This document shows, piece after piece, positions 8,227-51,740 of a stretch of DNA of 64,000 bases. How positions within the stretch are numbered: position 1 is the first letter of the stretch; each line of letters starts with the position of its first letter. A program made the translations under genes and the position numbers. Origin of the DNA: Candidatus Sumerlaeales bacterium (GTDB taxonomy: Bacteria > Sumerlaeota > Sumerlaeia > Sumerlaeales > Sumerlaeaceae); contig JBBSQY010000006.1 of assembly GCA_038243585.1 (NCBI GenBank), positions 12,840 through 76,839 on the forward strand, read 5' to 3'. Under the pieces are notes generated by a model. The model worked only from the letters and a program-made list of their open reading frames with translations. It did no database searches and was not told the DNA's origin.

Positions 8227-8231
8227 AGTTC

Positions 8232-10223: not shown

Positions 10224-10226
10224 GGG

Positions 10227-10532
10227 TTATTCTCCGGCTGCATCAGCAATGGACCAGAGATCCAGCGTTTGAAATTTGCGATAGATTAGGACGGCCAGGG
10301 CCAGGCCGATAGCGACTTCTGCCGCCGCAACGGGCAGGATAAACAAGAAAAATATTTGTCCGTCAGGTTCTCCGTGAAGTGCTGAACCTGCAACAAATGC
10401 AAGCCCTGCCGCATTGAGCATTACTTCCATGCTCATGAGAACAAACAGGAGGTTGCGGCGCACGATCACGCCTGTAACACCGATGAAAAATAATATAGTG
10501 GCAACAACGAGGGCAGGTTCAGCGAAGGGCAA
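10227..10532 (-). CDS. nuoK: NADH-quinone oxidoreductase subunit K
   Basis: 101-aa three-TM protein with the conserved MSMEVMLNAAGLAFV segment. Confidence 0.9.
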   Translation of the reverse strand: MPFAEPALVVATILFFIGVTGVIVRRNLLFVLMSMEVMLNAAGLAFVAGSALHGEPDGQIFFLFILPVAAAEVAIGLALAVLIYRKFQTLDLWSIADAAGE

Positions 10533-11591: not shown

Positions 11592-11600
11592 AATATTTAA

Positions 11601-15004: not shown

Positions 15005-15016
15005 AATAATTAGTAA

Positions 15017-16333: not shown

Positions 16334-16863
16334 TAGTCAGTGCCTCCCGCTAAGACGTTTTGCACAGGAGAATTATTATATTTTTCGAAAAGACTATCAA
16401 GCATTTCTGGCGTAACATTGCTGTGAAGGTCATCACCGACCATCATGCAGGGTGCCTTGTCGCAGTTGCCCAGACAAACAATAGGAAGCAGAGTGTACTC
16501 GCCATCCGGAGTTGTTTCGCCGAGGCGGATACCCAGTTTGTTTTCCAGGTGTTCCAGATTGTTGTCGCAGCCGCCAAGGTAGCAAGATATGGAATCGCAG
16601 GTGACGATAATCTTTTTCCCAACAGGTTGACGGAAAAACCAGTTGAAAAAAGTCGCAACACCTTCGACTTCAGGTGCGGACACTCCAACGATATCTGCCG
16701 CTTCGTATATGGCGTGGTCCGGCAACCAACCGTCGTAGTGGGCCTGAAGCTGCTGCATAACCCAGATAAGGCCAACGCGTCGGTTAGCGTAGTGAGTGCA
16801 GTGGTCAGATAATTCTTGTCGAAGTTCGTCAGGTAACATTTTAGTAATAATTTTATCGCTCAT
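16333..16863 (-). CDS. nuoE: NADH-quinone oxidoreductase subunit E (2Fe-2S)
   Basis: Thioredoxin-like ferredoxin with CDSISC...CLGNCDKAPC cysteines. Overlapping start/stop with nuoF. Confidence 0.92.
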   Translation of the reverse strand: MSDKIITKMLPDELRQELSDHCTHYANRRVGLIWVMQQLQAHYDGWLPDHAIYEAADIVGVSAPEVEGVATFFNWFFRQPVGKKIIVTCDSISCYLGGCDNNLEHLENKLGIRLGETTPDGEYTLLPIVCLGNCDKAPCMMVGDDLHSNVTPEMLDSLFEKYNNSPVQNVLAGGTD

Positions 16864-18623: not shown

Positions 18624-19174
18624 GCCCGAAAATCACCCGCCGCAATCAACGTTGATGATCCAGGAACCTTGGGTTTATCGTCCAAAACTAGACCCATAGG
18701 ACGCTGGCGACTTTGCTGAATCTGTTCTTGCAGTAGAATCAAGCCTTCAAGAAAAGCCTCAGGCCGTGGGGGACAACCGGGAATATATACATCCACCGGC
18801 AGGATAGTATCAACTCCCTGAACCACACTGTATACGTCGTACATACCCCCGGAGTTAGCGCAGGAACCCATGGAAATCACCCATTTGGGTTCCATAAGCT
18901 GCTCGTAAAGCCTCACGATACTAGGGGCCATTTTCTTAAAAACGGTGCCTGCAATAACCATAAGATCGGCTTCACGAGGGGTGCCACGCAGCACTTCCGC
19001 ACCAAAACGACTTACATCATATTTTGATGTAAAGGAAGTCATCATTTCTACATAGCAGCAGCTAAGTCCAAAATTAAACGGCCAGATGGAGTACTTGCGA
19101 CCCCAGTTAACCATATCAGTTAGTCGCGCAAAGACAAACGGCTGTTGTGTACTTTTTTCGTATGATGGCGCCAT
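18620..19174 (-). CDS. nuoB: NADH-quinone oxidoreductase subunit B
   Basis: Contains [19 protein letters not shown] and GCPPRPE motifs. I chose the start at the ATG at 19174 (MAPSYEK...), which is preceded by GGGGAGG 6 nt upstream. The longer ORF from 19258 would run deep into nuoA. Confidence 0.9.
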
Positions 19175-19524
19175 TCGAGACCTCCCCTCAGCCAGATGTA
19201 GGCTAATCCTCCGGATAAAAACCCGATAAATATCATTACTTTTACGAAGCCGTCCCACCCAAGATCTCGCACTGCAGTTCCATACGCATACAGGAAGGCG
19301 ACTTCTACATCAAACAGGAGAAAAAATATGGCGACGAGATAATAGGGGATAGATGTGCGCACATGCGCGCCCCCTGTGGGTGCAATACCGGACTCATATG
19401 GTGTGTCTTTGACTTTTGTATGGGTCGCTTTGCCTAAAAGGCGGCTTAGGCCAATAATAATAAAGGCCATCCCAATTATCAGAAACGTATATATTAGAAG
19501 TTCAAACACCTGGTTCCAATTCAA
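19120..19524 (-). CDS. nuoA: NADH-quinone oxidoreductase subunit A
   Basis: 134-aa three-TM protein ([19 protein letters not shown]) as the first gene of the operon. Its 3' end overlaps nuoB by 55 nt. Confidence 0.9.
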
Positions 19525-21843: not shown

Positions 21844-23352
21844 TTACAAGGCTTCTACCACGATTGGATTCCTGGCGGCGCCTAGTTCGTCGAGACGACG
21901 TACCGGCGTAGACAGGGGAGAGTCCACTACGTCAGCAGCATCAACTGAGCCTCTATTTGAAATGTCAATCATAGCCGCTGCAAAAAGTTCAAGCATTTCC
22001 TTATTTTCAGTTTCGGTCGGCTCAATCATTATAGCTTCGGGCACAATGAGTGGGAAATAAGTTGTCGGAGGATGAAAGCCGTAGTCGATTAGCTTCTTTG
22101 CAATATCAACGGCCTTAACACCCATCTTCTTTTGGCGGGTTGCGTCTATTACGAATTCATGCATACAACGCTTACCGTAGGGAATATCGTACTTATCGAC
22201 AAGCAATGATAAGAGATAATTGGCATTTAACACCGCGTAGTCACTGACGTCGCGAAGGCCTTGTTCTCCTAATTGCCGAAGATATACATAAGCGCGAACC
22301 ACATGGGCAACGTTGCCAAAATAACTGCGAACCTTCCCAATGCTTCGCGGGTCGAAGTTAAAGTCATAATTGCCATCATTACTCTTAACTACTGTAGGAG
22401 CAGGCAGATACGGAGCGAGAAAATCTCGTACAACTATAGGGCCAGCACCAGGGCCTCCGCCTCCATGAGGAATACTGAAGGTTTTATGAAGATTAATATG
22501 CATCATGTCGCCGCCGAAATCGCCAGGGCGTACCCGCCCGACTATGGCATTAAAATTTGCACCATCAATATATACGAGTCCTCCAGCCTGGTGCACTATT
22601 TCGGCTGCCTCAGCGAGACGGTCCTCGAACAGCCCGCAAGTATTGGGATTCGTTACCATAAGGCACGCGGTCCGGGGTCCAACTACTTTTTTTAAAGCTT
22701 CAATATCAATGCGGCCTGTGGAGTCAGATTTAATCTCGACCGGCTCCAGCCCTACACGAAAAGCCGATGCGGGATTTGTGCCATGGGCCGTGTCGGGAAT
22801 GATGACTTGGGTGCGCTCCGTTTCGCCTTTGTCATCGAAGTAAGCCTTTGCCATCAACAGGCATGTGAATTCGCCATGGGCACCGGCTGCGGGCTGCAGA
22901 GAGACTCCGGGAAGGTTTGTCAGCTTGCCTAGAATCTCCTGCACTTGGTAATATGCTTCCAATAAACCCTGCATGGTAGATGCCGGCTGATCCGGATGCA
23001 GATTCGAAAAACCAGGCAGGCCCGCCCCGAACTCATTGATTTTGGGATTATATTTCATTGTGCAGGAGCCCAATGGGTAGAAGGTCGTTTCTACTCCCAT
23101 TGTCCTACCCGACAAGTGCGTGAAATGGCGCATAGTAGTCAGTTCGCTGACCTCCGGCAGTGCCGGCGGGGTTTCGCGCAAAAATCTTTCTGGTATCACG
23201 TCAGCGCAGACCCCTTTGGTTTCGGGAGGCTCCGGGGGCAATGAAAAGCCGGTCCGACCAGGGACGCTAAGCTCAAAGATCGTCTGCGTGTCCAGGCGTT
23301 CTTTTACGCTTAGATTGTTTTCTTCGACGGTGATCTGAATTCGCCTGCTCAT
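21844..23352 (-). CDS. gcvPB: Glycine dehydrogenase (decarboxylating) subunit 2
   Basis: 502-aa PLP enzyme with NLHKTFSIPHGGGGPG (PLP lysine region) and the expected operon position. Confidence 0.93.
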   Translation of the reverse strand: MSRRIQITVEENNLSVKERLDTQTIFELSVPGRTGFSLPPEPPETKGVCADVIPERFLRETPPALPEVSELTTMRHFTHLSGRTMGVETTFYPLGSCTMKYNPKINEFGAGLPGFSNLHPDQPASTMQGLLEAYYQVQEILGKLTNLPGVSLQPAAGAHGEFTCLLMAKAYFDDKGETERTQVIIPDTAHGTNPASAFRVGLEPVEIKSDSTGRIDIEALKKVVGPRTACLMVTNPNTCGLFEDRLAEAAEIVHQAGGLVYIDGANFNAIVGRVRPGDFGGDMMHINLHKTFSIPHGGGGPGAGPIVVRDFLAPYLPAPTVVKSNDGNYDFNFDPRSIGKVRSYFGNVAHVVRAYVYLRQLGEQGLRDVSDYAVLNANYLLSLLVDKYDIPYGKRCMHEFVIDATRQKKMGVKAVDIAKKLIDYGFHPPTTYFPLIVPEAIMIEPTETENKEMLELFAAAMIDISNRGSVDAADVVDSPLSTPVRRLDELGAARNPIVVEAL

Positions 23353-24704
23353 AAGAACTCTCCCAAAGCTTCCGCGAAGCCATCAATTTCCGCGTCTGTA
23401 CGCTTTTCCGTAGTCGCAACCAACAGAAGATTTTCATATCCGCTGCCGCAGGTTTCAAAAAGCGGGGTGCCTGCAAGATAGCCTTTTAGCAGAAGAGCGT
23501 CGCGCACCTGCTGTGCAGGTCGGTTCGTTCGAATTACAAATTCCTTGAACACAGGTGCCGTAAACGCAATGGCATCAGTATGTTTTTTTAAAATGGCAGA
23601 TTTTAACCGGTTCGTATTTCGCACACAGGCACGGGCAACTTCACCCATACCTTGCGGACCCATCAGGCACATATAAATAGAGGCGCGCAAGGCGTTATGC
23701 GCGTGATTTGTACAGATATTTGAAGTCGCTTTTGCGCGGCGGATATGTTGCTCGCGGGTTTGCAGGGTAAGAACAAATCCACGCCGGTCTTCGCGGTCCT
23801 TTGTCTGGCCTACTAAACGCCCCGGCACTTTGCGCATAAACTCGGATTTACAAGTGAAAATACCAACGCTTTCGCCGCCGGCATATTGATTCAGCCCTAG
23901 CGGCTGTCCTTCGCCTACAGCAATATCAGCACCATAAGTCCCTGGTGGCGCCAGAACTCCCAAACTAATGGGGTCGGCAACAACAATAAATAACGCTCCA
24001 GATTCACGCACACGCTTTTCAATTCCATGCACATCCTCCAGACATCCGAAATAATTGGGATGTTGAACAACAACGGCGGCTACGTCGTCGCCCAGACTTT
24101 CGCCCAGTGCTTGTACATCGGTAAGTCCATTTCCGGCTTTTACAATATCGACTTTTGTATTAAAATGAGCCATATAGGTCGCAACTAAAGCGCGGGAATC
24201 GGGATGAACAGATTCCGACATAACAATTCGGTTTCGGTCCGGATGAACAGCAAGCGCCATGAACACTGCTTCGCCGACAGCCGAGGCGCCGTCGTAAAGT
24301 GACGCGTTGGAAACCGGCATATCGTATAATCGACTGAGTAACGTCTGGTACTCAAAAAACGCCTGGAGCAGTCCTTGGCTTGCCTCGGGCTGATAAGGGG
24401 TGTAACCGGTAACGAACTCGCTGCGATTAGCCACGTGCATAATGGCAGTGGGAACAAAATGGTCGTAAATTCCGCCACCCATAAATGAGGTAAGGCTGTC
24501 AGCCGCCTGATTCCGGGCAGCCATGCGGGTTAGATGTCCTTGCAGTTCCAGTTCACTGAGAGCAGTCGGAATATCGAAAGTATCTTTGTGCTGAAGGTCG
24601 GAAGGTATCTGATCGTTAAAAATTTCATCAATGGACGTGGCATCAACTGCTGCCAACATCTCAATTATCTGGTCAGGGGTAGCCTGAATATAGGGGTTAC
24701 TCAA
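23349..24704 (-). CDS. gcvPA: Glycine dehydrogenase (decarboxylating) subunit 1
   Basis: 451 aa with the conserved TPYQPEASQGLLQAFFEYQT block. 4-nt overlaps with gcvH and gcvPB. Confidence 0.93.
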   Translation of the reverse strand: MSNPYIQATPDQIIEMLAAVDATSIDEIFNDQIPSDLQHKDTFDIPTALSELELQGHLTRMAARNQAADSLTSFMGGGIYDHFVPTAIMHVANRSEFVTGYTPYQPEASQGLLQAFFEYQTLLSRLYDMPVSNASLYDGASAVGEAVFMALAVHPDRNRIVMSESVHPDSRALVATYMAHFNTKVDIVKAGNGLTDVQALGESLGDDVAAVVVQHPNYFGCLEDVHGIEKRVRESGALFIVVADPISLGVLAPPGTYGADIAVGEGQPLGLNQYAGGESVGIFTCKSEFMRKVPGRLVGQTKDREDRRGFVLTLQTREQHIRRAKATSNICTNHAHNALRASIYMCLMGPQGMGEVARACVRNTNRLKSAILKKHTDAIAFTAPVFKEFVIRTNRPAQQVRDALLLKGYLAGTPLFETCGSGYENLLLVATTEKRTDAEIDGFAEALGEFL

Positions 24705-25093
24705 TGGGATTCCTCAGCCACCTGCTTCTCATAATCGTCCGGAGAAATAAGTCGTTCAACATCTGCCGGATCATCGGGTGTAATTTTAATCATCCATCCG
24801 GTTCCGTAAGGCTCTTCTGAAACCTGATTTGGGTCGGCGACTACGGCATCATTGATGGCGCTTACTATTCCAGACACTGGCGCATAGAGATCACTGGCGG
24901 CCTTAACCGACTCAATAACTCCAAAACTGTCTCCAGCCTTTAGTTTACGGCCAGGCGTGGGAAGATCGACGAAAACAATTTCCTTATTGAGCTGCTCCAC
25001 GGCAAAATCGGAAATACCGACGACGACTGAACCGTCCTCGAGCCGCGCCCACTCATGGGATTTCTGATATCGTACGTTGTTGGGCCTGGACAT
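24701..25093 (-). CDS. gcvH: Glycine cleavage system H protein (lipoyl carrier)
   Basis: 130 aa with the lipoyl-lysine motif GVIESVKAASDLYAPVSG. Confidence 0.95.
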   Translation of the reverse strand: MSRPNNVRYQKSHEWARLEDGSVVVGISDFAVEQLNKEIVFVDLPTPGRKLKAGDSFGVIESVKAASDLYAPVSGIVSAINDAVVADPNQVSEEPYGTGWMIKITPDDPADVERLISPDDYEKQVAEESH

Positions 25094-26202
25094 TAGCCGG
25101 CGTTCCTCCTGTAGAAGGGTCGTTTTATAATTTGAGCGGGTAGGGCCCGCCCGCGAATATCAATGCTGATACTACCGCCCACCGCGCTATGTTCTTTTTT
25201 AACGTAAGCAAGGCCTACGGTTTTTTGGAGAGTCGGAGAAAATATGCCGCTTGTAACCGTGCCAATACCGTTACCCGAAGCATTTAGTACAGAAAAGCCC
25301 TGACGCGCCACCGGCCCTCGCTGAAGCATTTCGAATCCAACCAGCCTGGTATCAGGTCCACCGGAATTTTTTAAAGATTCCAGAGCAATGCGGCCTATAA
25401 AATCCTCCTTTTCCATTTCAATAAAGCGACCAAATCCGGCATGAAGCGGAGTGAGAGAGTCATCCAGTTCGTGTCCATAAAGCGGCATCGCTGCCTCCAG
25501 ACGAAGACTGTCCCGCGCCCCAAGTCCTATTGGCCTAACATTTCCTTCCGGCGCAGCGGCAATCAGGCTGTCCCAAAGCGAAACAACGTTTTCAGATGGC
25601 AGATAAATTTCAAAACCATCCTCGCCGGTATAGCCGGTACGGGAAATTATCATTCGTCCGGGATATTTGGGATTGTCTAAACTGGCAAATTGATAGTAGT
25701 TTAAAGTGGATACGTCTGTTCCGAAGAGGTTTGACATTACCTCCGCGCTTAAGGGCCCCTGGAGGGCAATCATTCCCCAGGATTCACCGCGGTCGTCTAG
25801 CTCAACATTGCCATCAAAAGCGTTGGCCTGTTTCCGAATCCAATCTAAATCACGCTCGCGGTTGCCGGCATTAATCACCAGGAAAATTTCTTCAACATCG
25901 TAATACACAGTTATATCATCAATGACCGTCCCATCCTCCCGAAGCAAAAAGGAGTACTGCACTTCACCCGGTTTCGCCGAGCTGACCTTTGCAGGGGTAA
26001 GATGATTTACGAAAGCGAATGCGTCGGAACCCCGAAGAAATAAGCGACCCATATGGCCAAGATCAAATAGGCCGGCTTCGGCACGAGTGTGCTGATGTTC
26101 CTGCGTAATACCTTCGTAATAGAGGGGCATATGCCAGCCATTAAAATCAGTCATAGTTGCGCCGTGGGCGATATGCCACTCATTCAAAGCTGTTTTTTTC
26201 AT
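25093..26202 (-). CDS. gcvT: Aminomethyltransferase (glycine cleavage T protein)
   Basis: Full-length GcvT similarity (HGATMTDFNGWHMPLYY, ISRTGYTGEDGFEI). ATG 26202 is preferred over the TTG at 26211, with a GGAG 11 nt upstream. TAATG overlap with gcvH. Confidence 0.92.
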   Translation of the reverse strand: MKKTALNEWHIAHGATMTDFNGWHMPLYYEGITQEHQHTRAEAGLFDLGHMGRLFLRGSDAFAFVNHLTPAKVSSAKPGEVQYSFLLREDGTVIDDITVYYDVEEIFLVINAGNRERDLDWIRKQANAFDGNVELDDRGESWGMIALQGPLSAEVMSNLFGTDVSTLNYYQFASLDNPKYPGRMIISRTGYTGEDGFEIYLPSENVVSLWDSLIAAAPEGNVRPIGLGARDSLRLEAAMPLYGHELDDSLTPLHAGFGRFIEMEKEDFIGRIALESLKNSGGPDTRLVGFEMLQRGPVARQGFSVLNASGNGIGTVTSGIFSPTLQKTVGLAYVKKEHSAVGGSISIDIRGRALPAQIIKRPFYRRNAG

Positions 26203-26449
26203 AGGCGGCAAGACTCCATCTTGTAATGCGTTATAAATATTATGTTATCAGTAAATCGAAGATAAATGGGACAGCCCGTTGGAACGACTTTTCCCATCGG
26301 AAATTCGGACGCAACAACAATGGGAATTCGACGATATTTTTACTACACATTCTACTCGTTGTTTTTTAATAACCCACGACATTCGGTATGAGAAAAGTTA
26401 ATCCGGGATTTTGGACTTCCGCCAAACTAGCGCTGCTGTATAATATCGA

Positions 26450-32840: not shown

Positions 32841-33854
32841 CTACAACAAATCCGTCTGTCGCGGCGGCTCGGCTACATTCAGATGCTCATAGCAAGCTGA
32901 AGTTGCCAGTCGGCCCCGCGGGGTTCGCTGCACAAAGCCTATCTGAATTAGAAAAGGCTCGATCATATCCTCGATGGTGTCCTGATCCTCGCCGATGGCG
33001 ACCGCTACGTTGTTCAGTCCCACCGGCCCGCCATTAAACTTTCTGATAATTGTCGTCAGGTAAAACTTATCCATCATGTCCAAGCCCAAGTGGTCAATGT
33101 CCAGCAGGTCCATGGCTGCCCCAGCTGTTTCAAGGGTTATGCTGCCATTAGAACGCACCTGTGCATAATCCCGCGCCCGCCGTAGGATTCGGTTGGCAAT
33201 ACGAGGCGTGCCGCGGGAACGCTTCGCGATTTCCACACAGCCTTCGTTGTCGATGGGCACCTTGAGAATTCCCGACGACCGGCGGACAATGGTTTCCATT
33301 TCTTCCTGCGAGTAAAAGTGGAGACGTTCAGAAATCCCAAACCTGCTGCGCAAAGGGGCCGTTACCATACCAGCTCTCGTTGTCGCGCCCACAAGCGTGA
33401 ATGCGGGCAAATCCAACTTAATGGATTTGGCGTGGGGCCCTTCGCCTATGAGGATATCAATTTTGAAGTCTTCCATGGCCTGGTAGAGGCACTCTTCCAC
33501 AATTCGGTTCAACCTGTGTATTTCATCGATAAAAAGAACGTCACCGGCCTTTAAATCCGTAAGCAGGGCGGCAAGATCATCCTTTCTTTCTATGATCGGG
33601 CCGCTTGTGCTTTTCAGCTCACCACCCATTTCATTGGCGATAATAACCGAAAGCGTCGTTTTCCCAAGTCCAGGTGGACCATAAAGCAGACAATGATCCA
33701 GCGGCTCGCTGCGCTGCCTGGCAGCCTGAATGAAAAGGCGCAGTTTTTCTATGACCCGCGATTGTCCGACAAACTCGGATGTCGTCTGCGGCCGCAGAGT
33801 TGTTTCTTCGCGCTCTTCATGTTCATCGCGCAACGGAGAAATAATGTTGTTCAC
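32841..33854 (-). CDS. ruvB: Holliday junction branch migration helicase RuvB
   Basis: Walker [10 protein letters not shown], Walker [10 protein letters not shown], sensor and winged-helix C-terminus. Full-length RuvB pattern. Confidence 0.95.
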
Positions 33855-34011
33855 TCTGAATTGTTAGCCATTTAACGAAGCACATATGCTAGAACAAAAT
33901 AACTAGTTCTGCAAAAATTTCCTTTTTTTTGACCAATTGCTCCATAAAGTGCGTAACCAGTTTTTCTTCGCGGTAGTATGCGTCATTGATTTCGCAGGAG
34001 GTAAATCCATC

Positions 34012-35229
34012 GTGTCGTTGAAAACCGACTTATGTAAAGAGACCGCATCCGAGTGCGTATTTCCCAATTATGGGATACGAAATATTGTGCTTACCGGAGG
34101 TAAAGGCACACGCGTATGGGACTCAGACGGGCGCGAATACCTGGATTTCCTTGCCGGAATTAGTGTGAACAACCTTGGACACTGCCCAGACAGAGTAATC
34201 GAGGCAATTCGTGCTCAAGTGGGGGAGCTTATGCATTGCTCCAACCTTTACTTGGTGCCGCAACAGGTTGAACTGGCGCAGCGCTTATGCGAACTATGTT
34301 TTGCTGATAAAGCGTTTTTTGCTAACAGCGGTGCAGAAGTGAATGAGGGAGCAATCAAGCTAGCTCGGCTTTACTCTAAGGCGAAATTCGGGGAAAACCG
34401 TTACGAAATCATCACTTTGCGAAATTCGTTTCATGGTCGCACATTGGCTACGCTGACCGCCACCGGACAGGATAAAATTCAAAAAGGCTTCGAGCCGCTT
34501 CCGGTTGGCTTCAGATATGGAATTTTTAACGATTTGGAATCTGTACGGGCCTTAGTGACTGACCTTACTTGTGCCGTAATGATTGAGCCAGTGCAGGGTG
34601 AAGGGGGAGTGACAGCCGCCTCTCCTGAATTTATTAACGGCCTCCGAGAGCTTTGTGATACTCATAATCTACTGTTGATATTTGACGAAATCCAATGCGG
34701 CATGGCTCGATCCGGAAAAATGTTCGCGCATCAGGTATACGGCGTCGAGCCAGACATCATGACGTTGGCGAAAGCTCTTGGCAACGGTTTGCCCATTGGC
34801 GCAATGCTGGCGCGCAGGGAGGTTGCCGACGTAATGCAGCCCGGCACTCACGGCTCCACTTTTGGCGGCGGGCCTGTGGCCTGTGCGGCGGCGCTGGCGG
34901 TTCTTGATGAAATGCGAGACTCTGCAATTCCTGAACGAGCAGCAAAAATGGGCGATTATCTGCGTTCAGGCATTGAAAACGCTCTACGCGGGCTTCCCGT
35001 CTTCAAGGGATTGCGCGGACTGGGTCTGATGGTAGGTATTGAATTGGCCTGCGAAGGTGCCGAGATAGTAAAAAAATGCCAGGAACATGGCGTTCTCATT
35101 AACTGCACTATGGGAAATGTTTTAAGATTACTTCCCCCACTAACAGTTACAGAAGAAGAATGCGACCAGGTGAGCGATCTCCTCGCCTTGATTATCGCGG
35201 ACCATGCCTTCAGTGCGCACCCTGTTTAG
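34012..35229 (+). CDS. argD: Acetylornithine aminotransferase (class III PLP)
   Basis: Blocks GKGTRVWDSDGREYLDF, NSGAEVNEGAIKLAR, FDEIQCGMARSGK and TLAKALGNGLPIG. A GTG at 34012 lies 10 nt after AGGAGG and is preferred over the longer ORF-track start at 33937. Confidence 0.9.
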   Translation: MSLKTDLCKETASECVFPNYGIRNIVLTGGKGTRVWDSDGREYLDFLAGISVNNLGHCPDRVIEAIRAQVGELMHCSNLYLVPQQVELAQRLCELCFADKAFFANSGAEVNEGAIKLARLYSKAKFGENRYEIITLRNSFHGRTLATLTATGQDKIQKGFEPLPVGFRYGIFNDLESVRALVTDLTCAVMIEPVQGEGGVTAASPEFINGLRELCDTHNLLLIFDEIQCGMARSGKMFAHQVYGVEPDIMTLAKALGNGLPIGAMLARREVADVMQPGTHGSTFGGGPVACAAALAVLDEMRDSAIPERAAKMGDYLRSGIENALRGLPVFKGLRGLGLMVGIELACEGAEIVKKCQEHGVLINCTMGNVLRLLPPLTVTEEECDQVSDLLALIIADHAFSAHPV

Positions 35230-35244
35230 AAAAGGACAAGCCGT

Positions 35245-36177
35245 ATGAAAGATCTTATAAGGACGTCAGATTTTGATCGGGACACAGTTGAGCGTGTAAT
35301 GAACGTGGCTGTCCGGGTGAAGGAGCGAACGCATCGGCGAGAGATTTGTGACGTACTGCAAGGTTATTCCGCCGCACTCATATTTCAAAAGCCCTCGCTG
35401 CGCACTCGAGTTACTTTTGACGTGGGAATAAAGCAACTGGGCGGGCACAGCGTCTATCTCGGGCCGTCTGAAATCAGCATGGGTGTGCGCGAAACAGTCT
35501 ATGATGTAGCCAGAAATCTCGAGCGCTGGGTCGATCTGATTGTAGCGCGAGTGTTTTCGCAGGATCATGTGGCGGAGTTGGCGCAGGTTGCTAAGCCCCC
35601 CGTCATAAATGCGCTGAGTAACACTGAACACCCTTGCCAGATCTTTGCCGACTTTCTTACCTTGAAGGAAAAAGGGCTGCGCTGGGATGAAATTCGCCTG
35701 GCCTACCTTGGAGACGGAAATAATGTGTGTGTCTCATTAATGCTGCTTAGTGCAGTTTTGGGTGCGGAAATACGTGTTGGAAGTCCCAAAAGATATTGGC
35801 CACAGAAGCACATTATAGACGAATTCAACGCTTTAGCAGCCAAATCCGGCGCGAAGCTTATTCTGACGGACGATCCCATAGAAGCTGCACGTGGAGCCAA
35901 TGCGGTCTATACAGATATATGGGCAAGCATGGGATGGGAAAACGAAGCGGCTGAACGAAGCGCTATTCTCCGTCCGTACCAGCTTAACGCCACCGTAATG
36001 AAAGAGGCTGAAACTGGAGCTTTCGTAATGCATGATCTGCCAGCTCACCGTGGGGAAGAAATTACGGACGACGTAATGGATGGCCCTAATTCCATCGTAT
36101 TTGATCAGGCAGAAAACCGGCTTCATGCGCAAAAAGCAATAATCCTCGAGTGTCTTGGTCTGTCCGATAAAGTATAA
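35245..36177 (+). CDS. argF: Ornithine carbamoyltransferase-family enzyme (variant CP/ornithine motifs)
   Basis: HPCQ and DIWASMG motifs and overall OTCase length. SLRTR stands in place of STRTR and HDLP in place of HCLP. Adjacent to argD. Confidence 0.8.
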   Translation: MKDLIRTSDFDRDTVERVMNVAVRVKERTHRREICDVLQGYSAALIFQKPSLRTRVTFDVGIKQLGGHSVYLGPSEISMGVRETVYDVARNLERWVDLIVARVFSQDHVAELAQVAKPPVINALSNTEHPCQIFADFLTLKEKGLRWDEIRLAYLGDGNNVCVSLMLLSAVLGAEIRVGSPKRYWPQKHIIDEFNALAAKSGAKLILTDDPIEAARGANAVYTDIWASMGWENEAAERSAILRPYQLNATVMKEAETGAFVMHDLPAHRGEEITDDVMDGPNSIVFDQAENRLHAQKAIILECLGLSDKV

Positions 36178-36226
36178 TAGCCTTCAAATTAACAATTGTG
36201 ATCCGAAACCATTGGAAGGAATCTAA

Positions 36227-38434
36227 ATGGAAGCAGCTGATGTTTCAAACCAGGCCCTTTTGACTCTGGTGACCGCTGTTTCCGCAGGAACTTTTCTTAT
36301 GGCGGTGGCTCAACGGGTTGGCATTCCGGCCATAGTTTTGCTATTAGGCGGTGGGATACTTCTCGGACCCGAGGTCTTTAATATCATACAGCCGGCATCG
36401 TTAGGTCCAGTTTTAATGCCGCTTGTATCTTTAGCCGTAGGTCTCATATTATTTGAGGCGGGAATGACGCTGGACTTCGCCGGCTATAAAACTGCCTCAA
36501 AAGTAATACAGCGGCTTTTAACCATTGGGACTTTGATTACCTGGGTTGGAACCACCGCTGCGATCTACTATATAATTGGGACCCAAATAGAAACAGCCCT
36601 TCTTTCGGCCAGTCTTGTGATTGTAACAGGGCCCACCGTAATCCTACCGCTGTTAAAACGGATCAAAGTCATTCCACGAGTCCATCATATTCTCCAGTGG
36701 GAAGGGGTTTTGATAGACCCAGTTGGGGTATTTGTCGCGATTTTATGTTTTGAGTTCTTAACCAGCGGTAGCGGTATGGCCGCCGCCACTGATTTTGGAC
36801 TAAGAGTCGTCGTAGGGGTCGGTGTAGGCTTATTCGGGGGTTTTGTTACCTATTACATCTTAAAAAAGCGCTGGGCACCGGAACATTTGGTAGGCGTGGC
36901 AACCCTTGGTTGTGCGGCATTTACCTTTGGACTTTCAGAAATGCTGATAGGCGAAGCCGGCCTTTTATCAGCAGTTATTGCAGGCTTCGTACCTGCGATT
37001 CTCAAACCTATTGATCTAAAACGAGTCAAAGATTTTAAAGCAGAAGTCGCTGATCTACTTATCGCCGTGCTTTTTATGGTGCTGGCGAGCCGCCTGGAGT
37101 TAGTCCAGTTTTTAGAATTCGGGTGGCGTGGGTGGCTGGTGGTCGCAGTGGTTATGGTTGTCGTTCGCCCGGTAAACATTCTTGTCTGTACCGCTGGGCA
37201 AGGGCTGCCATGGCGTGAAAAGGCGTTTTTGAGCTGGCTTGCTCCCCGGGGGATTGTAGCCGCGTCTATGGCTTCTCTTTTCAGAATCATGCTCGAAGAT
37301 AATCCGATGTTTAAAGATCCAGCATTTGTAGAAACTTTTACGTATTCGGTTATCATTACCACAATCGTCATCGAGGGGCTACTGGCGAACCGGGTAGCAA
37401 TTCTCTTGGGTCTGAAACGTCCGGAGGCGACTGGCTGGCTCATTGTTGGTGCGCATGATTTCTCAAGACGTCTGGCGACTTTTCTTATGAAATCCGGCTT
37501 GCCCGTTGTTGTGATCGATTCCAACATGAGAGCAGTTAAAGCTTTAACATCTAGATCAAACATACAGGCATATCAACGGGACGCCCGGGATCCGGCAATC
37601 TTTGAAGATGAAAAAATTATGGGCTTGGGAAACGTTATTGCTTTAACCGACAATGAAGACTTGAACCTCGTAATTTGCAACCGGCTGTCTGAGGTTACGG
37701 GGAGAGACAATGTCTATGCTTGGGTATCCGGCGCAAGCGGCAATCCATTGGAATCGGAAAACGCCAATATCGTCTGGTCTAATCTGCCTAAACCCTCAAT
37801 GCTAAGCGCAGAAATACGACAATACGAGAGTCGCTTTTTCCAACTGGACGGTAATGCAGAACTTCCGTTCGACAGCCTTGTTCTCGGTGCAGTTAGTGAA
37901 AATAAAGTGGAAATTTACCCTGAAAATCCAGACACTCTCCCCGGAGAGGGTGCTACACAAATGGTTGTGGTACGAAGCAGCAATCATTTAAAACGCGGCT
38001 TATCTATGGGTTTAGCTATCGACGTATCAGGCAATAACCTGTCTTCTGCCTTGAACTCCGCACTTGATCTTGTGCTGCTCAAATACCCGAATCTTCCGAA
38101 GGAACAGTTAATTACGGAAATTACTGCAAGAGAGCGAGAGTTTCCCACGGTTCTAGGACATGGAGTAGCTGTTCCTCATGTGTTTACCCGGCACATTAGC
38201 AACCGCATCTGTTGCATCATACGCAGCCCGGATGGGATCACGTTTGGTAATGGCGATTCTTCCGAACAGGTGCATCTGATGTTCCTCGTGATTAGCCCAT
38301 CTGGAGATCCCGTCGGACATCTTGCAATGATGGCGGAAATAGCTAACCTCATAAGCCATGTAGAGATGAGAGCGCGTTTGCTTGGGGCGGAAGACGCCGC
38401 GGAAATTACTCAAGTAATTGGTGAAGAGCAATAA
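36227..38434 (+). CDS. Cation/H+ antiporter (CPA1/NhaP-like) fused to TrkA-N/RCK-like and PTS EIIA (type 2/Ntr-like) domains
   Basis: About 400 aa of polytopic Na_H-exchanger-like membrane domain. A Rossmann-like segment follows (GWLIVGAHDFSRRLATFLMKSGLPVVVIDSN). The C-terminal EIIA-2 signature is GHGVAVPHV with a His. Confidence 0.75.
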   Translation: MEAADVSNQALLTLVTAVSAGTFLMAVAQRVGIPAIVLLLGGGILLGPEVFNIIQPASLGPVLMPLVSLAVGLILFEAGMTLDFAGYKTASKVIQRLLTIGTLITWVGTTAAIYYIIGTQIETALLSASLVIVTGPTVILPLLKRIKVIPRVHHILQWEGVLIDPVGVFVAILCFEFLTSGSGMAAATDFGLRVVVGVGVGLFGGFVTYYILKKRWAPEHLVGVATLGCAAFTFGLSEMLIGEAGLLSAVIAGFVPAILKPIDLKRVKDFKAEVADLLIAVLFMVLASRLELVQFLEFGWRGWLVVAVVMVVVRPVNILVCTAGQGLPWREKAFLSWLAPRGIVAASMASLFRIMLEDNPMFKDPAFVETFTYSVIITTIVIEGLLANRVAILLGLKRPEATGWLIVGAHDFSRRLATFLMKSGLPVVVIDSNMRAVKALTSRSNIQAYQRDARDPAIFEDEKIMGLGNVIALTDNEDLNLVICNRLSEVTGRDNVYAWVSGASGNPLESENANIVWSNLPKPSMLSAEIRQYESRFFQLDGNAELPFDSLVLGAVSENKVEIYPENPDTLPGEGATQMVVVRSSNHLKRGLSMGLAIDVSGNNLSSALNSALDLVLLKYPNLPKEQLITEITAREREFPTVLGHGVAVPHVFTRHISNRICCIIRSPDGITFGNGDSSEQVHLMFLVISPSGDPVGHLAMMAEIANLISHVEMRARLLGAEDAAEITQVIGEEQ

Positions 38435-38522
38435 TGTGTCCTTTCAATGGCTACATCTTAAACGAATGTAATTCTGGAGAGACTCACATGAAACCCAGCG
38501 ATCCGCATCCGATGTTAATAGT

Positions 38523-39305
38523 GTGACAAATCCGTTTGTTTTAATGCAGATGATAGGGTGGGCCGATGTCCTGGATGTCGCCATCATCGGTACTCTTTTT
38601 TACGTCCTGCTCTATCTTCTTAAACAAACCAGGTCCAGTTCTGCAACGCGGGGCGTTGTAGGGGTCATAGTATTTAGCTTTCTATTATACGCCATGGCTC
38701 GGTGGATGCGTCTTACGGCCACCAGCACGCTTTTCGAAAGATTTTGGCTTGTTATCGCTCTCGCAGTTCTGATTATTTTCCAGAACGAATTTAGAAAAGC
38801 AATTTTAGACATTAGCAGACGTTCGCTGGTACGACGCTTTTCCCGTAACGCCATGCCCATGGATGAAGTCGTAAAGGCTGTAAAGCAGCTAAGCCGGCTT
38901 AAAGAGGGCGCGATAATTTGTATAGAGCGTCTGGACGCGCTCAAAAGTCATGCAGAAACCGGTACGCCCTTAGACTCGTTGATTAGCAAAGAGTTAATAA
39001 CCTGCATTTTTAAAAACTACAGTCCGCTTCACGACGGTGCAGTCCTCATCCGGGGCGATCGCATATCCGCAGCTGGCTGTATGTTGCCACTGTCTGACAG
39101 CCCCATGCTCGAAAGCGAATTAGGCATGCGTCACAGGGCAGCAATTGGCCTTAGCCAGCAAACTGATGCTGTAGTCATTGTGGTGAGTGAGGAAACAGGT
39201 ACAATTTCACTGGCTGTTGACTCTAATTTTGAGCGGCATCATACACCGGAATCCCTAAAAGAAGCAATTCAAGAGCTGATGAATGTTGAAGAAGAAGATA
39301 AATAA
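38523..39305 (+). CDS. cdaA: Diadenylate cyclase CdaA (membrane-anchored DAC domain)
   Basis: Three N-terminal TMs, then DAC motifs (GAIICIER, PLHDGAVLIRGDRISAAGCMLPLS, GMRHRAAIGLSQQTDAVVIVVSEETGTIS). Confidence 0.92.
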   Translation: MTNPFVLMQMIGWADVLDVAIIGTLFYVLLYLLKQTRSSSATRGVVGVIVFSFLLYAMARWMRLTATSTLFERFWLVIALAVLIIFQNEFRKAILDISRRSLVRRFSRNAMPMDEVVKAVKQLSRLKEGAIICIERLDALKSHAETGTPLDSLISKELITCIFKNYSPLHDGAVLIRGDRISAAGCMLPLSDSPMLESELGMRHRAAIGLSQQTDAVVIVVSEETGTISLAVDSNFERHHTPESLKEAIQELMNVEEEDK

Positions 39306-40368
39306 ACAGCGCGTAAAAGAGCAGCTACGGCTTGTGGGAATGGCACTCGGCCTGGCAATCATCGTGTGGATGATAGCCAAGTCCGGCGAAACCCGTGAAG
39401 CGAAACTGACCATACCTATCGAAGTGGTCTCTGCCGGACCGCAGGTCGAAGTCCAGGTCATCCCGGAGGAGATGCCGGTAATTATACGGTATGGCCGGGA
39501 AGCGAGCCCGTACATCAGCAGCGAAAACTTTACGTTCGTTATTGATGCCAGCACGATGCAGGAAAATCTGGGTGTGAGCTGGAAGTCCATGACAATGAGT
39601 TTAAGCGACAAAAACTGGGTCGCAAACATACCCTCGGCCCGCGTCGATCTTGCAAATATTGGTTTGCAGGGGAGCACAGTGGAAGTGCGTATGCGATACA
39701 ACGCTGTGCCCGCAGTCATTAAGCCGGAAATTGTGGGACTTGATCGATTACCTGATGGATATCAACTTGTGCAGCCGGTAAAGGTTACACCTCGAGAAGT
39801 TTATTTAATCGGAGATCTGGACAAACTAGCCGGCCATACCGGTGATGACTTGACAAGCCGGATACAGCTGAAAACCGTCCCGGTTTCCGTAGCGGGTCTT
39901 ACCGAAAGCAGCCTCGAAAGCGTGGAGATACTGTTGCCAGCGGGCATTTCTATGGTGCAGCGAAGCAGCAATCTGGCCGAGGTAAACCTGGAAATTCAGG
40001 AAGTGCAAACGGTGCGAACTATTTCTGATATCGCTTTAAATTTTCAGGCTGTTGCTCCTGATACTGTGACCATGAAATATGGGATTAGGTCTGCATCTGT
40101 GCGCGTTTTTGGTCCTCAGAGTCTGCTGCGCCAGCTATCGCCTGAATCCTTCCGCGTGGGACTTGTTCGGCCGCAAGAAGAGGTTCCTGGTCAGGTTCGT
40201 GATGTGCCATTGGAGGTTCATTTTGCGACATCCATATCTGAGGAGATTCGCTCCCGGGTTCTGATACAAGCCATTGAACCGAACTCAATCCGCGTTGAGT
40301 ATGTTGCCAGACAGTCAACCCCAGTAACCGCCACGGCTTCAACAACGGCCACCCAGGAAACGAGGTAA
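39283..40368 (+). CDS. cdaR: CdaA regulatory protein CdaR (YbbR-like repeats)
   Basis: N-terminal TM followed by repeated YbbR-type beta domains. It overlaps the cdaA 3' end by 23 nt, the classic cdaA-cdaR arrangement. Confidence 0.75.
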   Translation: MLKKKINKQRVKEQLRLVGMALGLAIIVWMIAKSGETREAKLTIPIEVVSAGPQVEVQVIPEEMPVIIRYGREASPYISSENFTFVIDASTMQENLGVSWKSMTMSLSDKNWVANIPSARVDLANIGLQGSTVEVRMRYNAVPAVIKPEIVGLDRLPDGYQLVQPVKVTPREVYLIGDLDKLAGHTGDDLTSRIQLKTVPVSVAGLTESSLESVEILLPAGISMVQRSSNLAEVNLEIQEVQTVRTISDIALNFQAVAPDTVTMKYGIRSASVRVFGPQSLLRQLSPESFRVGLVRPQEEVPGQVRDVPLEVHFATSISEEIRSRVLIQAIEPNSIRVEYVARQSTPVTATASTTATQETR

Positions 40369-40376
40369 TTTGAAAA

Positions 40377-41150
40377 TTGCCAAAACTTTGCGTTAATATT
40401 GATCATGTGGCAACCGTCAGACAGGCGCGTCGCATAAAGGAGCCGGATCCTGTTTTCGCGGCGTTGCTTGCTGAGTTGGCCGGCGCCGCCGGAATTACCT
40501 GCCATTTGCGCGAAGATCGTCGTCACATCCAGGATGAAGATGTGGTCAGATTAAAAGCGATGGTAAAAACCCGGCTTAACCTGGAAATGGCCGTCACGGA
40601 GGAAATGCTGAAAATCGCAGAAGATATTAGCCCGCACATGGTGATGTTTGTGCCCGAAAATCGGCAGGAGGTTACGACAGAGGGCGGTCTTGACATAAAA
40701 CGAAACCTTAAGCGGGTAAAAGCTGCAACTGAACGAATGAAGGCTGCCGGACTCAAAGTAAGCCATTTTATTGATCCAGAGATTGTGCAGATTGACGCCG
40801 CGCGCGAATGTGGAGCTAATGTAATCGAGCTTCATACCGGTGCCTACGCTGAAGCCCTGACGGAAAACGATCGCTTGCAGGAACTGCAGCGTCTGGAGGC
40901 AGGCGTTCTACACGCCTCTCTTAACGATCAACGTATTAATGCAGGACATGGACTAAACCTGCGCAATGTCGGCCCCATAGCGGCCATACAAGGTATATCC
41001 GAACTTCATATCGGCCACAGCATAGTTTCTCACTCAGTACTTGTGGGATTTGAACGAGCGACCCGGGAGATGCTGGATGCCATTATTAGAGGTGAGCTCC
41101 TCGGAGCGAGGTATACACCCGCACAGGTTCTGACTCTTTTTTCTCCGTGA
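40377..41150 (+). CDS. pdxJ: Pyridoxine 5'-phosphate synthase
   Basis: [21 protein letters not shown] and [18 protein letters not shown] are hallmark PdxJ blocks. Confidence 0.93.
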
Positions 41151-41839
41151 AAAAATCTAGAAAAAAACGCAGAATGTGGACTTTTGTTATTCTCATGCTG
41201 GCCGCAATCATGTTGTGTCTTGTAGCGGCTGTTTTCGTCATCCACCACAATGTCGCCGCGGCTGGTCGAGAGAACATCTATTCGGCTAACGATGATATTC
41301 CCAAAATGCAAGTCGGACTTGTGCTTGGCGCACGTGTATTCAGTAGCGGCAGGCTCTCCAGAATGCTGGCTGACAGAGTCGACGCGAGCATCATCCTATA
41401 CAATCGCGGTGTTATCCAGAAAATATTGATGAGTGGGGACAACAGGTCCGCCAATTACAATGAAGTCACTGCTATGCGAAATTACGCCATAGAACATGGC
41501 GTGCCGCCTAACGATGTCGTTCGAGATTTCGCGGGTTTTCGAACTTACGATAGTATTTACCGGGCCAAAGAGCTATGGGAGTTTAAAGAAATGATAATCA
41601 TCAGCCAAAAATTTCATCTCCCCAGAGCGTTGTACATTGCCGAGAACCTGGACATAGAAGCCGTAGGGGTATATGCTGTCGATAACAGGTATCGGGCTCT
41701 TGTTAAGTCCGAACTACGGGAAACGGCGGCAAGGGTGGCAGCATGGTTAGATGTTTTGGTTGGGCGCGATCCATACTTCCTGGGACCAAAAGAATCTCTT
41801 GATGGATCAAGCCAGGAAACAAGGGTTCCTGAGAAATAA
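41147..41839 (+). CDS. sanA: SanA/YdcF (DUF218) family envelope protein
   Basis: N-terminal TM, then [38 protein letters not shown]...[14 protein letters not shown], typical of SanA. Confidence 0.8.
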
Positions 41840-41867
41840 CCCGACAAATCGCCTTGACCAGCAGCCT

Positions 41868-42974
41868 CTATTCAGAATCTCCAGATGCTGCCTGCGCCTT
41901 TGCGTACTCCTGGCGCAGTCGGTCCATGAGTGCATCCCGCTGATCATAAAGCCGCTTTTGGGGACGTGGTTCACATTTGGTCAAAGCATAAGCTGTAAGC
42001 AGCGGTAAAACGATAGTTGTGTCGGCATAACATACTACCGTTCCAGGTAATTTGTCGGGATCCACTTTCCCCCAACTTACCGCTTCACTTGGGGTTGCTC
42101 CACTTAAGCCTCCGGTGTCAGGGCGCGCATCCGTCACCTGCAAAAAGTAGTCATGCCCTTTCTCCTCGATTCCAAGTACTTCCTGAATCTGCGGTTCGGT
42201 TTGAAGTGCAAAATTTTTGGGAGATCCGCCCCCAAAAATACAGATCGCGCTTTCTCCGCCACTGCGTTTTGCTCCAAGCACTATAGCCGCCGTCTCGTTG
42301 ACGTCAATTAATGGATCAATAGTTAGCTTGCTGCCGCTCAATTGACGAGCGGCCATGTTCATTCCAATCGAGCTGTCACCGGGTGAAGACGTGTAAATAG
42401 GAATTCCCAATTCATACGCGACAGACAGCATGGAACGTTTTTCCTGCCCAAGAACTTTTTCGCGTTCAGCGACATATTTACCGCACAAGTAATGAAATTC
42501 AGCCGAACCCATTGGTCTCTGAAATTCCGGACCCTCAAAAATCTTCCTAAAGAACTCGTCAGTTTTAAGGAGCACATCGTAATCGAAAAAGATATCGTAA
42601 ATCCGCACCACGTTTTCTTCCCGCAGTACGACATCGCTGATGGTATGGTTACCCTGTCTAAGATCCAGCCCAATTCCGAAATGCGTATCATGATACAGGT
42701 TAGCGCCGGTGCTGATAATCCAGTCAATAAAGCCTGCTCTCATAAGCGGAATGATCGCGGAAATGCCTAATCCAGCCGGAGTAAGAGCACCGGTAAACGT
42801 CATCCCCACAGTCACCTGCGGCTTCAAGCATTTCTGAGTTAACAGCATTGCGGCTTCCCGGAGCCTGGCGCCGTTATAAGCCTGCATATTGTTGTCAATC
42901 AGGTCAACGACACTAATCCCGGCCTTAATCGGTTCTGGGTTAATCTTGCGACCGTGCAGAAATTTCGAAGCCAT
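41868..42974 (-). CDS. Deoxyhypusine synthase-like protein
   Basis: DHS-family blocks ([36 protein letters not shown]) over the full length. Confidence 0.8.
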
Positions 42975-44501: not shown

Positions 44502-44711
44502 CTATCGCCGATGGACTTGGAACTTATCGTAAACTAATGTCCACTCTTCAGACGGTTCGTTAAAAGATCCTAACAGATCTTCTTCGTCCAATCCCGTAAG
44601 ACGAACGCTCTCTTCAATAAAATGCTCGATGCGCGCTTGTCTGTCTGCTTCAGGATCCATCGGAACCAAATTAAACTGTGCTAATGACCCACGGAGGTCG
44701 CGAAAGCCCAT
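44502..44711 (-). CDS. Small acidic hypothetical protein (69 aa)
   Basis: ORF preceded by an AGGAG SD about 7 nt upstream. I recognised no family. Confidence 0.4.
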   Translation of the reverse strand: MGFRDLRGSLAQFNLVPMDPEADRQARIEHFIEESVRLTGLDEEDLLGSFNEPSEEWTLVYDKFQVHRR

Positions 44712-50199: not shown

Positions 50200-51552
50200 C
50201 TAATTGGTGGAAGGTCCCGGGGGAGCGGTGCGTAATATGGTCCAACCTGCAATACCCGCAATGAGCGACCCTGCTAATATTCCAATTTTCGAAATCTCAA
50301 GCAGCTGAGATTCCCCGAAAGCCAGATTCGCGACAAAAAGACTCATTGTGAACCCGATTCCGCCTAGAAACGCAACGCCAATCACATGGCGCCAGGTTAC
50401 TCCTACAGGCATAGACGCAAGGTTTAACCTGATAGCCAACCATGAAAATAGGCTAACACCAATAAGTTTACCCACCACCAAACCGACTATAATTCCAAGA
50501 CTCACCGAACTTCCAAGCGCGGCAACTCCGCCGCCCGCCAGACTAACTCCCGCGTTTGCAAAAGCAAAAATAGGCAGAACCGTAAAAGTAACCCACGGAT
50601 GGAGCTCATCTTCTAGCCGACTCAGCGGTGTCTGCACACCTTCTGTAAGATCCTGCAAGGAATTTAACACACCATGACGGTCACTGTTAAGCCCCCGCTC
50701 TATATCCAGTGGTCCTGCTTCCTCAAACCCGTTAAGTAGCTGGCGCCCATTTTCCAGAAACTGCGCCTCGGCGATTCGCGTGCGAGCCGGAATTGCCATA
50801 GCCAGTAAGACCCCCGCAACAGTGGCGTGAACTCCTGACTTAAGGATGGCTATCCACAGAACCGCGCCGACCAAGCCATAAACGACCGGCCTGCGTACTC
50901 CCATGGTATTTAACGCAATGGCCGCCGCAAGCATGATACCAGACACCAGAAGAGCCCCAAGGGACACTTTCGCAGTGTAAAAAATCGCAATTACCAGTAC
51001 GGCCCCGATATCGTCGACAATGGCAAACGCCGTAAGAAATATTTTTAACGACAACGGCGCACGCTTTCCAAGCAGTTGCAAAACACCAAGGGAAAAGGCT
51101 ATATCCGTAGCCATGGGAATTCCCCAACCGTGGCTTCCGTCTCCACCGACGTTAAACACAGCATATAACCCCGCCGGCACCACCATGCCTCCAATCGCAG
51201 CTGCAATGGGAAGTGTGGCCTTTCGCACGGAGGTAAGCTCACCGATCAAAATTTCCCGCTTAATTTCAAGGCCCACAACGAAAAAGAAAATTGCCATAAG
51301 CCCGTCATTGATCCACAGTAACAACGGTTTGGATAGCTCATAGGGTCCAATACCTATTGTTAATTTGGACTGCCAGGTATTAAAATAAACTGAGGACCAG
51401 GGGGAGTTCGCCCATAGTAGGGCCAGAACTGTACAACCAAAGAGAATTATACCGCCTGAAGTCTGGCGATGTAGGAACTCCTGAAACGGGCTTAAAATAC
51501 GGTCAATTGGAGCCCTTGGTCCAATTTTGACATGAGATTTCTTACTGGCCAC
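50200..51552 (-). CDS. nhaA: Na+/H+ antiporter NhaA
   Basis: Hallmark blocks FFFVVGLEIKRE, GIPMATDIAFSLGV and FLTAFAIVDDIGAVLVIA. Confidence 0.93.
   Translation of the reverse strand: MASKKSHVKIGPRAPIDRILSPFQEFLHRQTSGGIILFGCTVLALLWANSPWSSVYFNTWQSKLTIGIGPYELSKPLLLWINDGLMAIFFFVVGLEIKREILIGELTSVRKATLPIAAAIGGMVVPAGLYAVFNVGGDGSHGWGIPMATDIAFSLGVLQLLGKRAPLSLKIFLTAFAIVDDIGAVLVIAIFYTAKVSLGALLVSGIMLAAAIALNTMGVRRPVVYGLVGAVLWIAILKSGVHATVAGVLLAMAIPARTRIAEAQFLENGRQLLNGFEEAGPLDIERGLNSDRHGVLNSLQDLTEGVQTPLSRLEDELHPWVTFTVLPIFAFANAGVSLAGGGVAALGSSVSLGIIVGLVVGKLIGVSLFSWLAIRLNLASMPVGVTWRHVIGVAFLGGIGFTMSLFVANLAFGESQLLEISKIGILAGSLIAGIAGWTILRTAPPGPSTN

Positions 51553-51663: not shown

Positions 51664-51740
<77 letters not shown>

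Follow-up and report, generated by a model that had tools for sequence, protein, structure and literature searches.

The question raised by the locus considered here is whether two signalling systems, the bacterial phosphotransferase system (PTS) and cyclic di-AMP (c-di-AMP), may meet on one and the same cation transporter. In 64,000 nucleotides (nt) of DNA from Candidatus Sumerlaeales bacterium (GenBank assembly GCA_038243585.1, contig JBBSQY010000006.1, positions 12,840 to 76,839 of the forward strand), hereafter the window, by whose own numbering positions are given, an open reading frame (ORF) of 735 amino acids (aa) encodes an antiporter-type protein in which a membrane domain is continued by an RCK-type domain and a C-terminal EIIA domain of the PTS, and this ORF is followed by cdaA, the gene of a membrane-anchored diadenylate cyclase. 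The original prediction suggested that phosphorylation by the PTS-Ntr system and c-di-AMP are coupled on this transporter. The PTS part of the idea was borne out by the EIIA profile, a trio of catalytic residues and the PtsN precedents, whereas the c-di-AMP part was not, as neither a c-di-AMP signature nor a TrkA_C match was detected in the protein family and no riboswitch around the gene.

In our opinion, the encoded protein is probably a NhaP-type antiporter whose tail joins an RCK module (TrkA_N and a divergent lobe of RCK_C-like fold) to a C-terminal EIIA domain akin to PtsN, and regulation would take place within the polypeptide by means of EIIA phosphorylation. The data summarized below concern the 64-kb window, an alignment of 119 homologues of the protein and, for the Pfam scan, a subset alignment of 25 sequences.

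Architecture and family of the antiporter

The three parts that had been read in the single frame of 735 aa, namely a CPA1/NhaP-type membrane domain, a TrkA-N-like Rossmann segment and a C-terminal type-2 EIIA domain, were all found by Pfam above the corresponding cut-offs: Na_H_Exchanger (PF00999) with 128.4 bits and E 3.9e-37 against a cut-off of 26.2, TrkA_N (PF02254) with 45.1 bits against 23.8, and PTS_EIIA_2 (PF00359) with 76.1 bits against 27. TrkA_C, a further domain expected in the tail, gave no match in the protein. In the family members scanned, TrkA_N and PTS_EIIA_2 were matched in 25/25 and TrkA_C in 0/25. The full-length AlphaFold model obtained from the 119 homologues has a mean predicted local distance difference test score (pLDDT) of 91.8 and a predicted template modelling score (pTM) of 0.79, and its best Foldseek matches are PaNhaP and MjNhaP1, with a target template modelling (TM) score of 0.78-0.83; the same two proteins are the best sequence matches in the Protein Data Bank (PDB). 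Both marks of the CPA1/NhaP type, the Na_H_Exchanger profile and the 13-helix NhaP fold, are therefore present.

A search of 5.8 billion proteins with the antiporter protein gave 3298 matches at E<=1e-10, and the three-domain architecture was identical in 120/120 of the best homologues out of these 3298, at identities of 42-82%. When the tail alone, which begins near residue 395, was used in an exhaustive search of 1.84 billion cluster representatives, 56 matches were obtained at E<=1e-30, mostly proteins of 720-770 aa, and the architecture recurred. The named members among the best 120 belong to Planctomycetota, Verrucomicrobiota, Sumerlaeota, Handelsmanbacteria and Bradymonadia, the nearest named genome being a Candidatus Sumerlaeales metagenome-assembled genome. 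Overall identity among the 119 homologues is ~44%. The named homologues bear generic annotations, "cation:proton antiporter" or "PTS transporter subunit EIIA". The ORF is thus a member of a widespread, uncharacterised family distributed across several phyla, and the domain combination is already recorded by annotation pipelines, while the literature searches on the fused antiporter-RCK-EIIA architecture found no paper describing the fusion.

The closest solved relatives of the EIIA domain are the PtsN structures 4gqx, 3urr, 2a0j and 1a6j. Residues R635, H651 and H698 align exactly with R57, H73 and H120 of E. coli PtsN, in which His73 is the phosphorylation site. The phosphorylatable histidine context GHGVAVPHV, to which the original prediction had drawn attention, is indeed kept, in the form LGHGVAVPHV, and the domain has both the profile score given above and the catalytic histidine on which its identity as EIIA was to be judged. 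Among the homologues, H651 and H698 are each conserved in 119/119 and R635 in 105/119, and the motifs G-x-G-[VI]-A-x-P-H and G-D-P-E-G-H-L show little or no variation among the 119 sequences. Catalytic residues are expected to be kept in this way only where selection acts on phosphotransfer chemistry.

Sister proteins devoid of the EIIA domain are also known (loci L058, L059, L061, L063, L064, L072, L076, L077 and L080). They consist of 597-672 aa with the VTGPT core and the Na_H_Exchanger and TrkA_N domains, and they end after the RCK_C-like segment. Because these sisters share the membrane core and the RCK part with the fused proteins, the EIIA domain may be regarded as a control module added to a CPA1-RCK base.

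The degenerate glycine motif predicted for the Rossmann segment (IVGAHDFS) was found as well. In the window protein the loop reads GWLIVGAHDFSRR, degenerate in comparison with GxGxxG, and the degeneracy holds across the family, where the loop has the form G-A-H-x-x-[GAS]-R, with His at the position of the second Gly (G408 in 113/119, A409 in 108/119 and H410 in 104/119). D431, the acidic residue that follows strand 2, does not vary in the family, and the T-D-N-x-D-L-N motif of the TrkA_N lobe is invariant or nearly so. The loss of GxGxxG was also considered as a hallmark of the EIIA fusion, with EIIA replacing nucleotide sensing, and this idea was rejected, since the EIIA-less sisters have the same loop.

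Between the N-lobe and the EIIA domain there is a middle domain, the profile of which gave no meaningful match among PDB sequences; a match to a carcinoembryonic antigen was spurious. Folded alone, this domain was modelled with a pLDDT of 82.5, and its top 50 Foldseek neighbours are nearly all RCK_C domains (those of TrkA, KtrA, KhtT, CpaA, BusR and MthK). The fold matches are weak (E 0.026-0.25, TM-score 0.35-0.48), and the middle domain may be read as a divergent RCK C-lobe that is weakly recognisable by fold.

Proposed control by EIIA phosphorylation

The nearest precedents come from E. coli, in which the CPA1 K+/H+ antiporter YcgO is inhibited by unphosphorylated PtsN attached to the cytoplasmic tail of the antiporter (PMC11808508); PtsN also binds the RCK protein TrkA, again in the unphosphorylated form, and KdpD (PMC13104625). 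Like YcgO (CvrA), the window protein has a CPA1/NhaP membrane domain of ~385 residues followed by a cytoplasmic tail with an RCK-type domain, and control of the EIIA(Ntr) type by phosphorylation state, shown for YcgO (PMC11808508), is proposed for the window protein by analogy. The two systems differ in that PtsN is free in E. coli, where it acts as a separate protein, whereas EIIA is covalently fused here, and in that the YcgO tail consists of RCK_C and CorC, whereas the tail of the window protein consists of TrkA_N, the RCK_C-like lobe and EIIA, with no CorC detected. The partnership of an RCK module with an EIIA(Ntr) domain in K+ homeostasis also resembles that of TrkA with PtsN (PMC13104625). 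TrkA is the nearest RCK protein to the window protein in sequence as well as in fold; however, TrkA forms a soluble tandem-RCK ring that gates the channel-like K+ importer TrkH, whereas a single RCK module with a degenerate glycine loop is placed here inside an antiporter. KefC, which comes after the two NhaP proteins among the Foldseek matches, is a K+/H+ exchanger of the CPA2 type, and its nucleotide-binding loop is canonical. As in the window protein, its exchanger is directly followed by a Rossmann-type KTN/RCK N-lobe, and the Foldseek alignment extends over ~505 columns in comparison with a membrane domain of ~400 residues, but the superposition is poor overall (root-mean-square deviation ~9 A), and the KefC structures matched have 546-548 residues, too short for an EIIA domain after a similar layout. 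Gating of KefC is by glutathione and glutathione adducts (PMC11808508).

Since E. coli PtsN regulates YcgO and TrkA as a separate protein, the fusion most likely does the same job in one polypeptide. We infer that a regulatory PTS chain would pass the phosphoryl group from Enzyme I through HPr or NPr to His651, and that the tethered EIIA domain, depending on whether it is phosphorylated, may contact the RCK module differently, so that transport would be switched on or off. By analogy with E. coli, the exchanger would be shut as long as EIIA is unphosphorylated and would be freed by phosphorylation; K+ (or another monovalent cation) would most likely leave the cell in exchange for H+.

Several observations weigh against this mechanism. 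The EIIA domain falls far short of the cut-offs of the PtsN equivalog models, with 30.7 against 138.7 bits for TIGR01419 and 29.8 against 221 bits for PRK10896, and it is also far under the FruA equivalog cut-off; moreover, it is a fused domain, unlike the free-standing PtsN of ~160 aa. Genes of Enzyme I, HPr and HprK were not found within the window, although the HPr search, based on E. coli and B. subtilis HPr sequences and signature regular expressions, is a weak test; because of this result the phosphodonor of the window organism is putative. CorC, the part of YcgO that binds PtsN, is missing here, so that any contact must use a different surface. In the membrane domain, neither the Asp of TD nor the Asn of ND is present, so that canonical Na+/K+:H+ antiport is not assured. 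Finally, the literature searches yielded no experiment on any member of the family.

Some of these points may be taken to mean that EIIA has lost its role as a phosphoacceptor and has become a fixed autoinhibitory or ligand-binding module, possibly in an organism without a PTS chain. The failure to find PTS phosphotransfer genes in the window and the distance from the PtsN and FruA equivalogs agree with this, as does the scarcity of HPr near the antiporter, found in 1/87 related loci. We nevertheless consider such a loss of function improbable: both histidines and their flanking motifs are invariant or almost so at an overall identity of ~44%, which is hard to explain without catalysis, and phyla rich in this antiporter family, Planctomycetes and those related to them, are reported to possess a regulatory PTS chain that lacks PTS permeases (PMC2405797). 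The single HPr gene was observed in locus L019 at 681-986 (+) (PF00381, 93 bits), where it follows an ABC-ATPase fragment ~3 kb upstream of the fused antiporter (3930-6167, same contig); this HPr bears both His15-type and Ser46-type motifs and, like the reported PTS chain, it counts in favour of the mechanism proposed above.

The ion site of the membrane domain is unexpected and deserves separate consideration. In NhaP antiporters, residues of the TD and ND type help to bind the ion or are indispensable. When mapped onto PaNhaP by a phmmer alignment, the canonical TD motif of the unwound transmembrane helix 5 corresponds to T134-G135 in the window protein (G135 in 118/119) and the ND motif of transmembrane helix 6 to I163-D164 (I163 in 116/119, D164 in 118/119), while the position of PaNhaP Ser155 is occupied by Gly160. 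These TG/ID replacements sit inside the invariant VTGPT and WEGVLID blocks, and the same variant is found in the EIIA-less sister proteins; YcgO, in contrast, keeps the TD aspartate (D133), which is Gly in the window family. As the TG/ID site is family-wide, the transported substrate cannot be read from homology alone. One might go further and suppose that the membrane domain does something other than conventional Na+(K+)/H+ antiport and that TG/ID specifies another substrate or transport mode, placed under RCK-EIIA control, the more so as the variant, shared with the EIIA-less sisters, defines a whole subclade. This seems to us unlikely, because the other CPA1 core residues are kept (E159 in 119/119, Asp164, Glu77 and the conserved arginines), the domain as a whole has the NhaP fold, and the best-scoring curated models in NCBIfam are the PRK05326 K+/H+ antiporter (CvrA/YcgO) models. 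The scores with these equivalogs are all far below the cut-offs, at 113.1, 110.5 and 57.7 bits against 355, 309 and 471, respectively, and of the CvrA/YcgO tail (RCK_C and CorC) no CorC_HlyC or TrkA_C match was obtained by Pfam in the antiporter. Control of a NhaP-type exchanger by phosphorylation of its own EIIA domain is thus the reading that we prefer.

Gene order at cdaA and the c-di-AMP question

The position of cdaA 88 nt downstream of the antiporter stop codon and on the same strand was confirmed, as was the identity of its product, which scored 210.4 bits with TIGR00159 (cut-off 188.8), 138.1 bits with the DAC domain (PF02457) and 27.7 bits with the N-terminal membrane domain (PF19293); the DGA and RHR motifs are readable in the translation. 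The GTG start is kept in four syntenic genomes (window 38523, L082 10266, L083 10274 and L085 3011). The second gene of the supposed cdaA-cdaR module stands on less firm ground. The ORF overlaps cdaA by 23 nt, and its N-terminal hydrophobic helix and position fit CdaR; the window copy gave no Pfam or NCBIfam match. Of three orthologues with 69-86% identity to it, two pass the YbbR cut-off of 22.3 bits (L082 with 25.9 and L085 with 22.8 bits, the two being 86% and 69% identical to the window ORF) and one is below it (L083 with 15.7 bits). The label "cdaR-like" is reasonable but weakly based.

That the antiporter itself is a direct target of c-di-AMP, as the original prediction allowed, found no confirmation. 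Like CpaA of S. aureus, KhtTU of B. subtilis and CpeAB of Streptomyces, the window protein combines a CPA domain with an RCK_C-type (here RCK_C-like) fold, but in those systems the RCK_C domain carries the c-di-AMP signature (I/L)(I/L)x2DxRx5N(I/L)(I/L) (PMC7132281) and EIIA is lacking, while the window family has EIIA and the signature was found in the tails of 0/119 members under the strict and 0/119 under the relaxed form. The window residues aligned to the signature positions read V-S-E...Y. No riboswitch of the ydaO type and no other Rfam match was found in 33700-41900.

The arrangement of genes was compared in a context sample of 80 metagenomic loci, of which 42 were full three-domain loci and 33 of those had >=2 kb of downstream sequence. 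The block ruvB (divergent)/argD-argF-antiporter-cdaA-ORF-pdxJ-DUF218 is collinear in relatives with 66-82% antiporter identity, and a partial Sumerlaeales locus (L001), obtained from a genome-collection scan, shows synteny with the window on the upstream side. In the flanks of 82 other loci, including two Sumerlaeota genomes, no cdaA homologue was found, and in these two more distant Sumerlaeota the antiporter adjoins the tuf/ribosomal operon or brkB. As a positive control, the cdaA search recovered cdaA solely in the window and four syntenic relatives. Because the adjacency of antiporter and cdaA is limited to a narrow clade in which the whole block is collinear, it is to be regarded as ordinary local synteny: the position of the antiporter upstream of cdaA-cdaR looks like a gene order peculiar to one Sumerlaeales clade rather than a functional link that has been conserved.

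The spacer between the two genes has no terminator-like or promoter-like site and no Rfam match, and a conserved element sought in it among four syntenic relatives, where it is 44-59 nt long, was not found. Co-transcription of the antiporter with cdaA is possible, since the gap is short and lacks a terminator; the same argument, however, would tie the antiporter equally to argF and pdxJ, i.e. to genes of arginine and pyridoxal metabolism.

A dual-input transporter, in which c-di-AMP from the adjacent CdaA binds to the RCK part, EIIA reads the PTS and the two signals converge, may be weighed against these data. It would agree with the nearest folds of the middle domain, which belong to RCK_C domains, those of KhtT, KtrA and CpaA in complex with c-di-AMP among them, with the location of cdaA on the same strand 44-88 nt after the antiporter, with no terminator, in four related genomes, and with the known control of CPA antiporters by c-di-AMP through RCK_C domains (PMC7132281). 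We find it very unlikely all the same, as the signature is missing from every homologue, no TrkA_C sequence signal and no c-di-AMP riboswitch were found, the resemblance in fold is weak (best E 0.026), cdaA is missing from the flanks of the 82 other loci, the two other Sumerlaeota among them, and, where cdaA does adjoin the antiporter, collinearity extends to the whole 10-kb block, made up of unrelated housekeeping genes. Adjacency alone is no ground for counting the antiporter locus as a c-di-AMP target.

Further features of the window and biological meaning

The features of the locus are collected in Table 1.

Table 1. Features of the antiporter-cdaA locus, with positions in the window
Feature	Residues	Position	Strand	Basis
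Whole ORF, fused CPA1-type antiporter, RCK and EIIA	1-735	36227..38434	+	ORF list, three Pfam domains
Membrane domain, NhaP/CPA1 fold, atypical ion site	22-384	36290..37378	+	Pfam, Foldseek, phmmer
Altered ion-site motifs	133-135 and 158-165	36623-36631, 36698-36721	+	116-119/119 homologues
RCK N-lobe TrkA_N, degenerate glycine loop G408-A-H-D-F-S413-R	405-500	37439..37726	+	Pfam, family loop composition
Middle domain, putative divergent RCK_C-like fold	~511-586	37757..37984	+	Isolated-domain model, Foldseek
PtsN-like EIIA type-2 domain	599-731	38021..38419	+	Pfam, PtsN structures
His651 codon, predicted phosphorylation site	651	38177..38179	+	Aligned with E. coli PtsN His73; motif located at 38156
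Antiporter-cdaA spacer, 88 nt		38435..38522	+	No recognisable element
cdaA, membrane-anchored diadenylate cyclase, GTG start		38523..39305	+	TIGR00159, Pfam DAC and CdaA_N
cdaR-like ORF, 361 aa, N-terminal membrane helix, putative divergent YbbR repeats		39283..40368	+	Orthologue YbbR scores, position

The only recurrent neighbour of the antiporter in the 42 full-length loci is a serine acetyltransferase gene (SATase_N and Hexapep), located directly upstream on the same strand in 11/42 of them (for instance, L033 7122-7910 and L019 3057-3860), and it probably marks one clade; no PTS, K+ or c-di-AMP gene recurs in these loci. The window also contains a second, unrelated antiporter of the NhaA type at 50200-51552 (-) (PF06965, 513 bits). 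A deoxyhypusine synthase family protein, here in a bacterial genome, is encoded at 41868-42974 (-) (PF01916, 234 bits); its gene is kept in L082 and L085 and is missing at the same position in L083. A 69-aa ORF with no Pfam match, at 44502-44711 (-) between a Wzy_C gene and a Golvesin_C/Amidase_3 gene, has the same length and position in L082, L083 and L085. The translations at 5243-19258 (-) and 21844-26211 (-), read by eye, suggest that all of a nuo (NADH dehydrogenase) operon is present and is followed by genes of glycine cleavage (gcvP subunits, gcvH and gcvT). Three tRNA genes at 3247-3320, 3442-3514 and 51668-51740 (all -) are the sole Rfam matches in the window at the gathering threshold.

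Turning to what the locus may mean for the organism, there is a slim chance that the protein is a self-contained sensor-transporter, in which the metabolic state sensed by a regulatory PTS is written on the tethered EIIA domain that gates an atypical CPA1 exchanger, made unusual in ion selectivity or stoichiometry by its TG/ID site, and which, in this Sumerlaeales clade, is in addition co-transcribed with cdaA-cdaR. If this is true, the capacity for cation efflux and the synthesis of c-di-AMP would be expressed together even without direct binding of c-di-AMP to the transporter. The conserved TG/ID site, for its part, marks a CPA1 subclade whose ion specificity deserves testing.

To our knowledge, the control of K+ transport by PtsN is known almost only from Proteobacteria, where it takes place between separate proteins and is mechanistically disputed. 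The occurrence of antiporter, RCK module and EIIA domain in one polypeptide across several phyla gives independent support of the "Rosetta stone" kind to the view that the regulation of transporters by EIIA(Ntr) is direct and ancient, and extends this support outside Proteobacteria. In addition, the fusion is a convenient single-chain model for structural studies of the communication between a phosphohistidine switch and an RCK domain.

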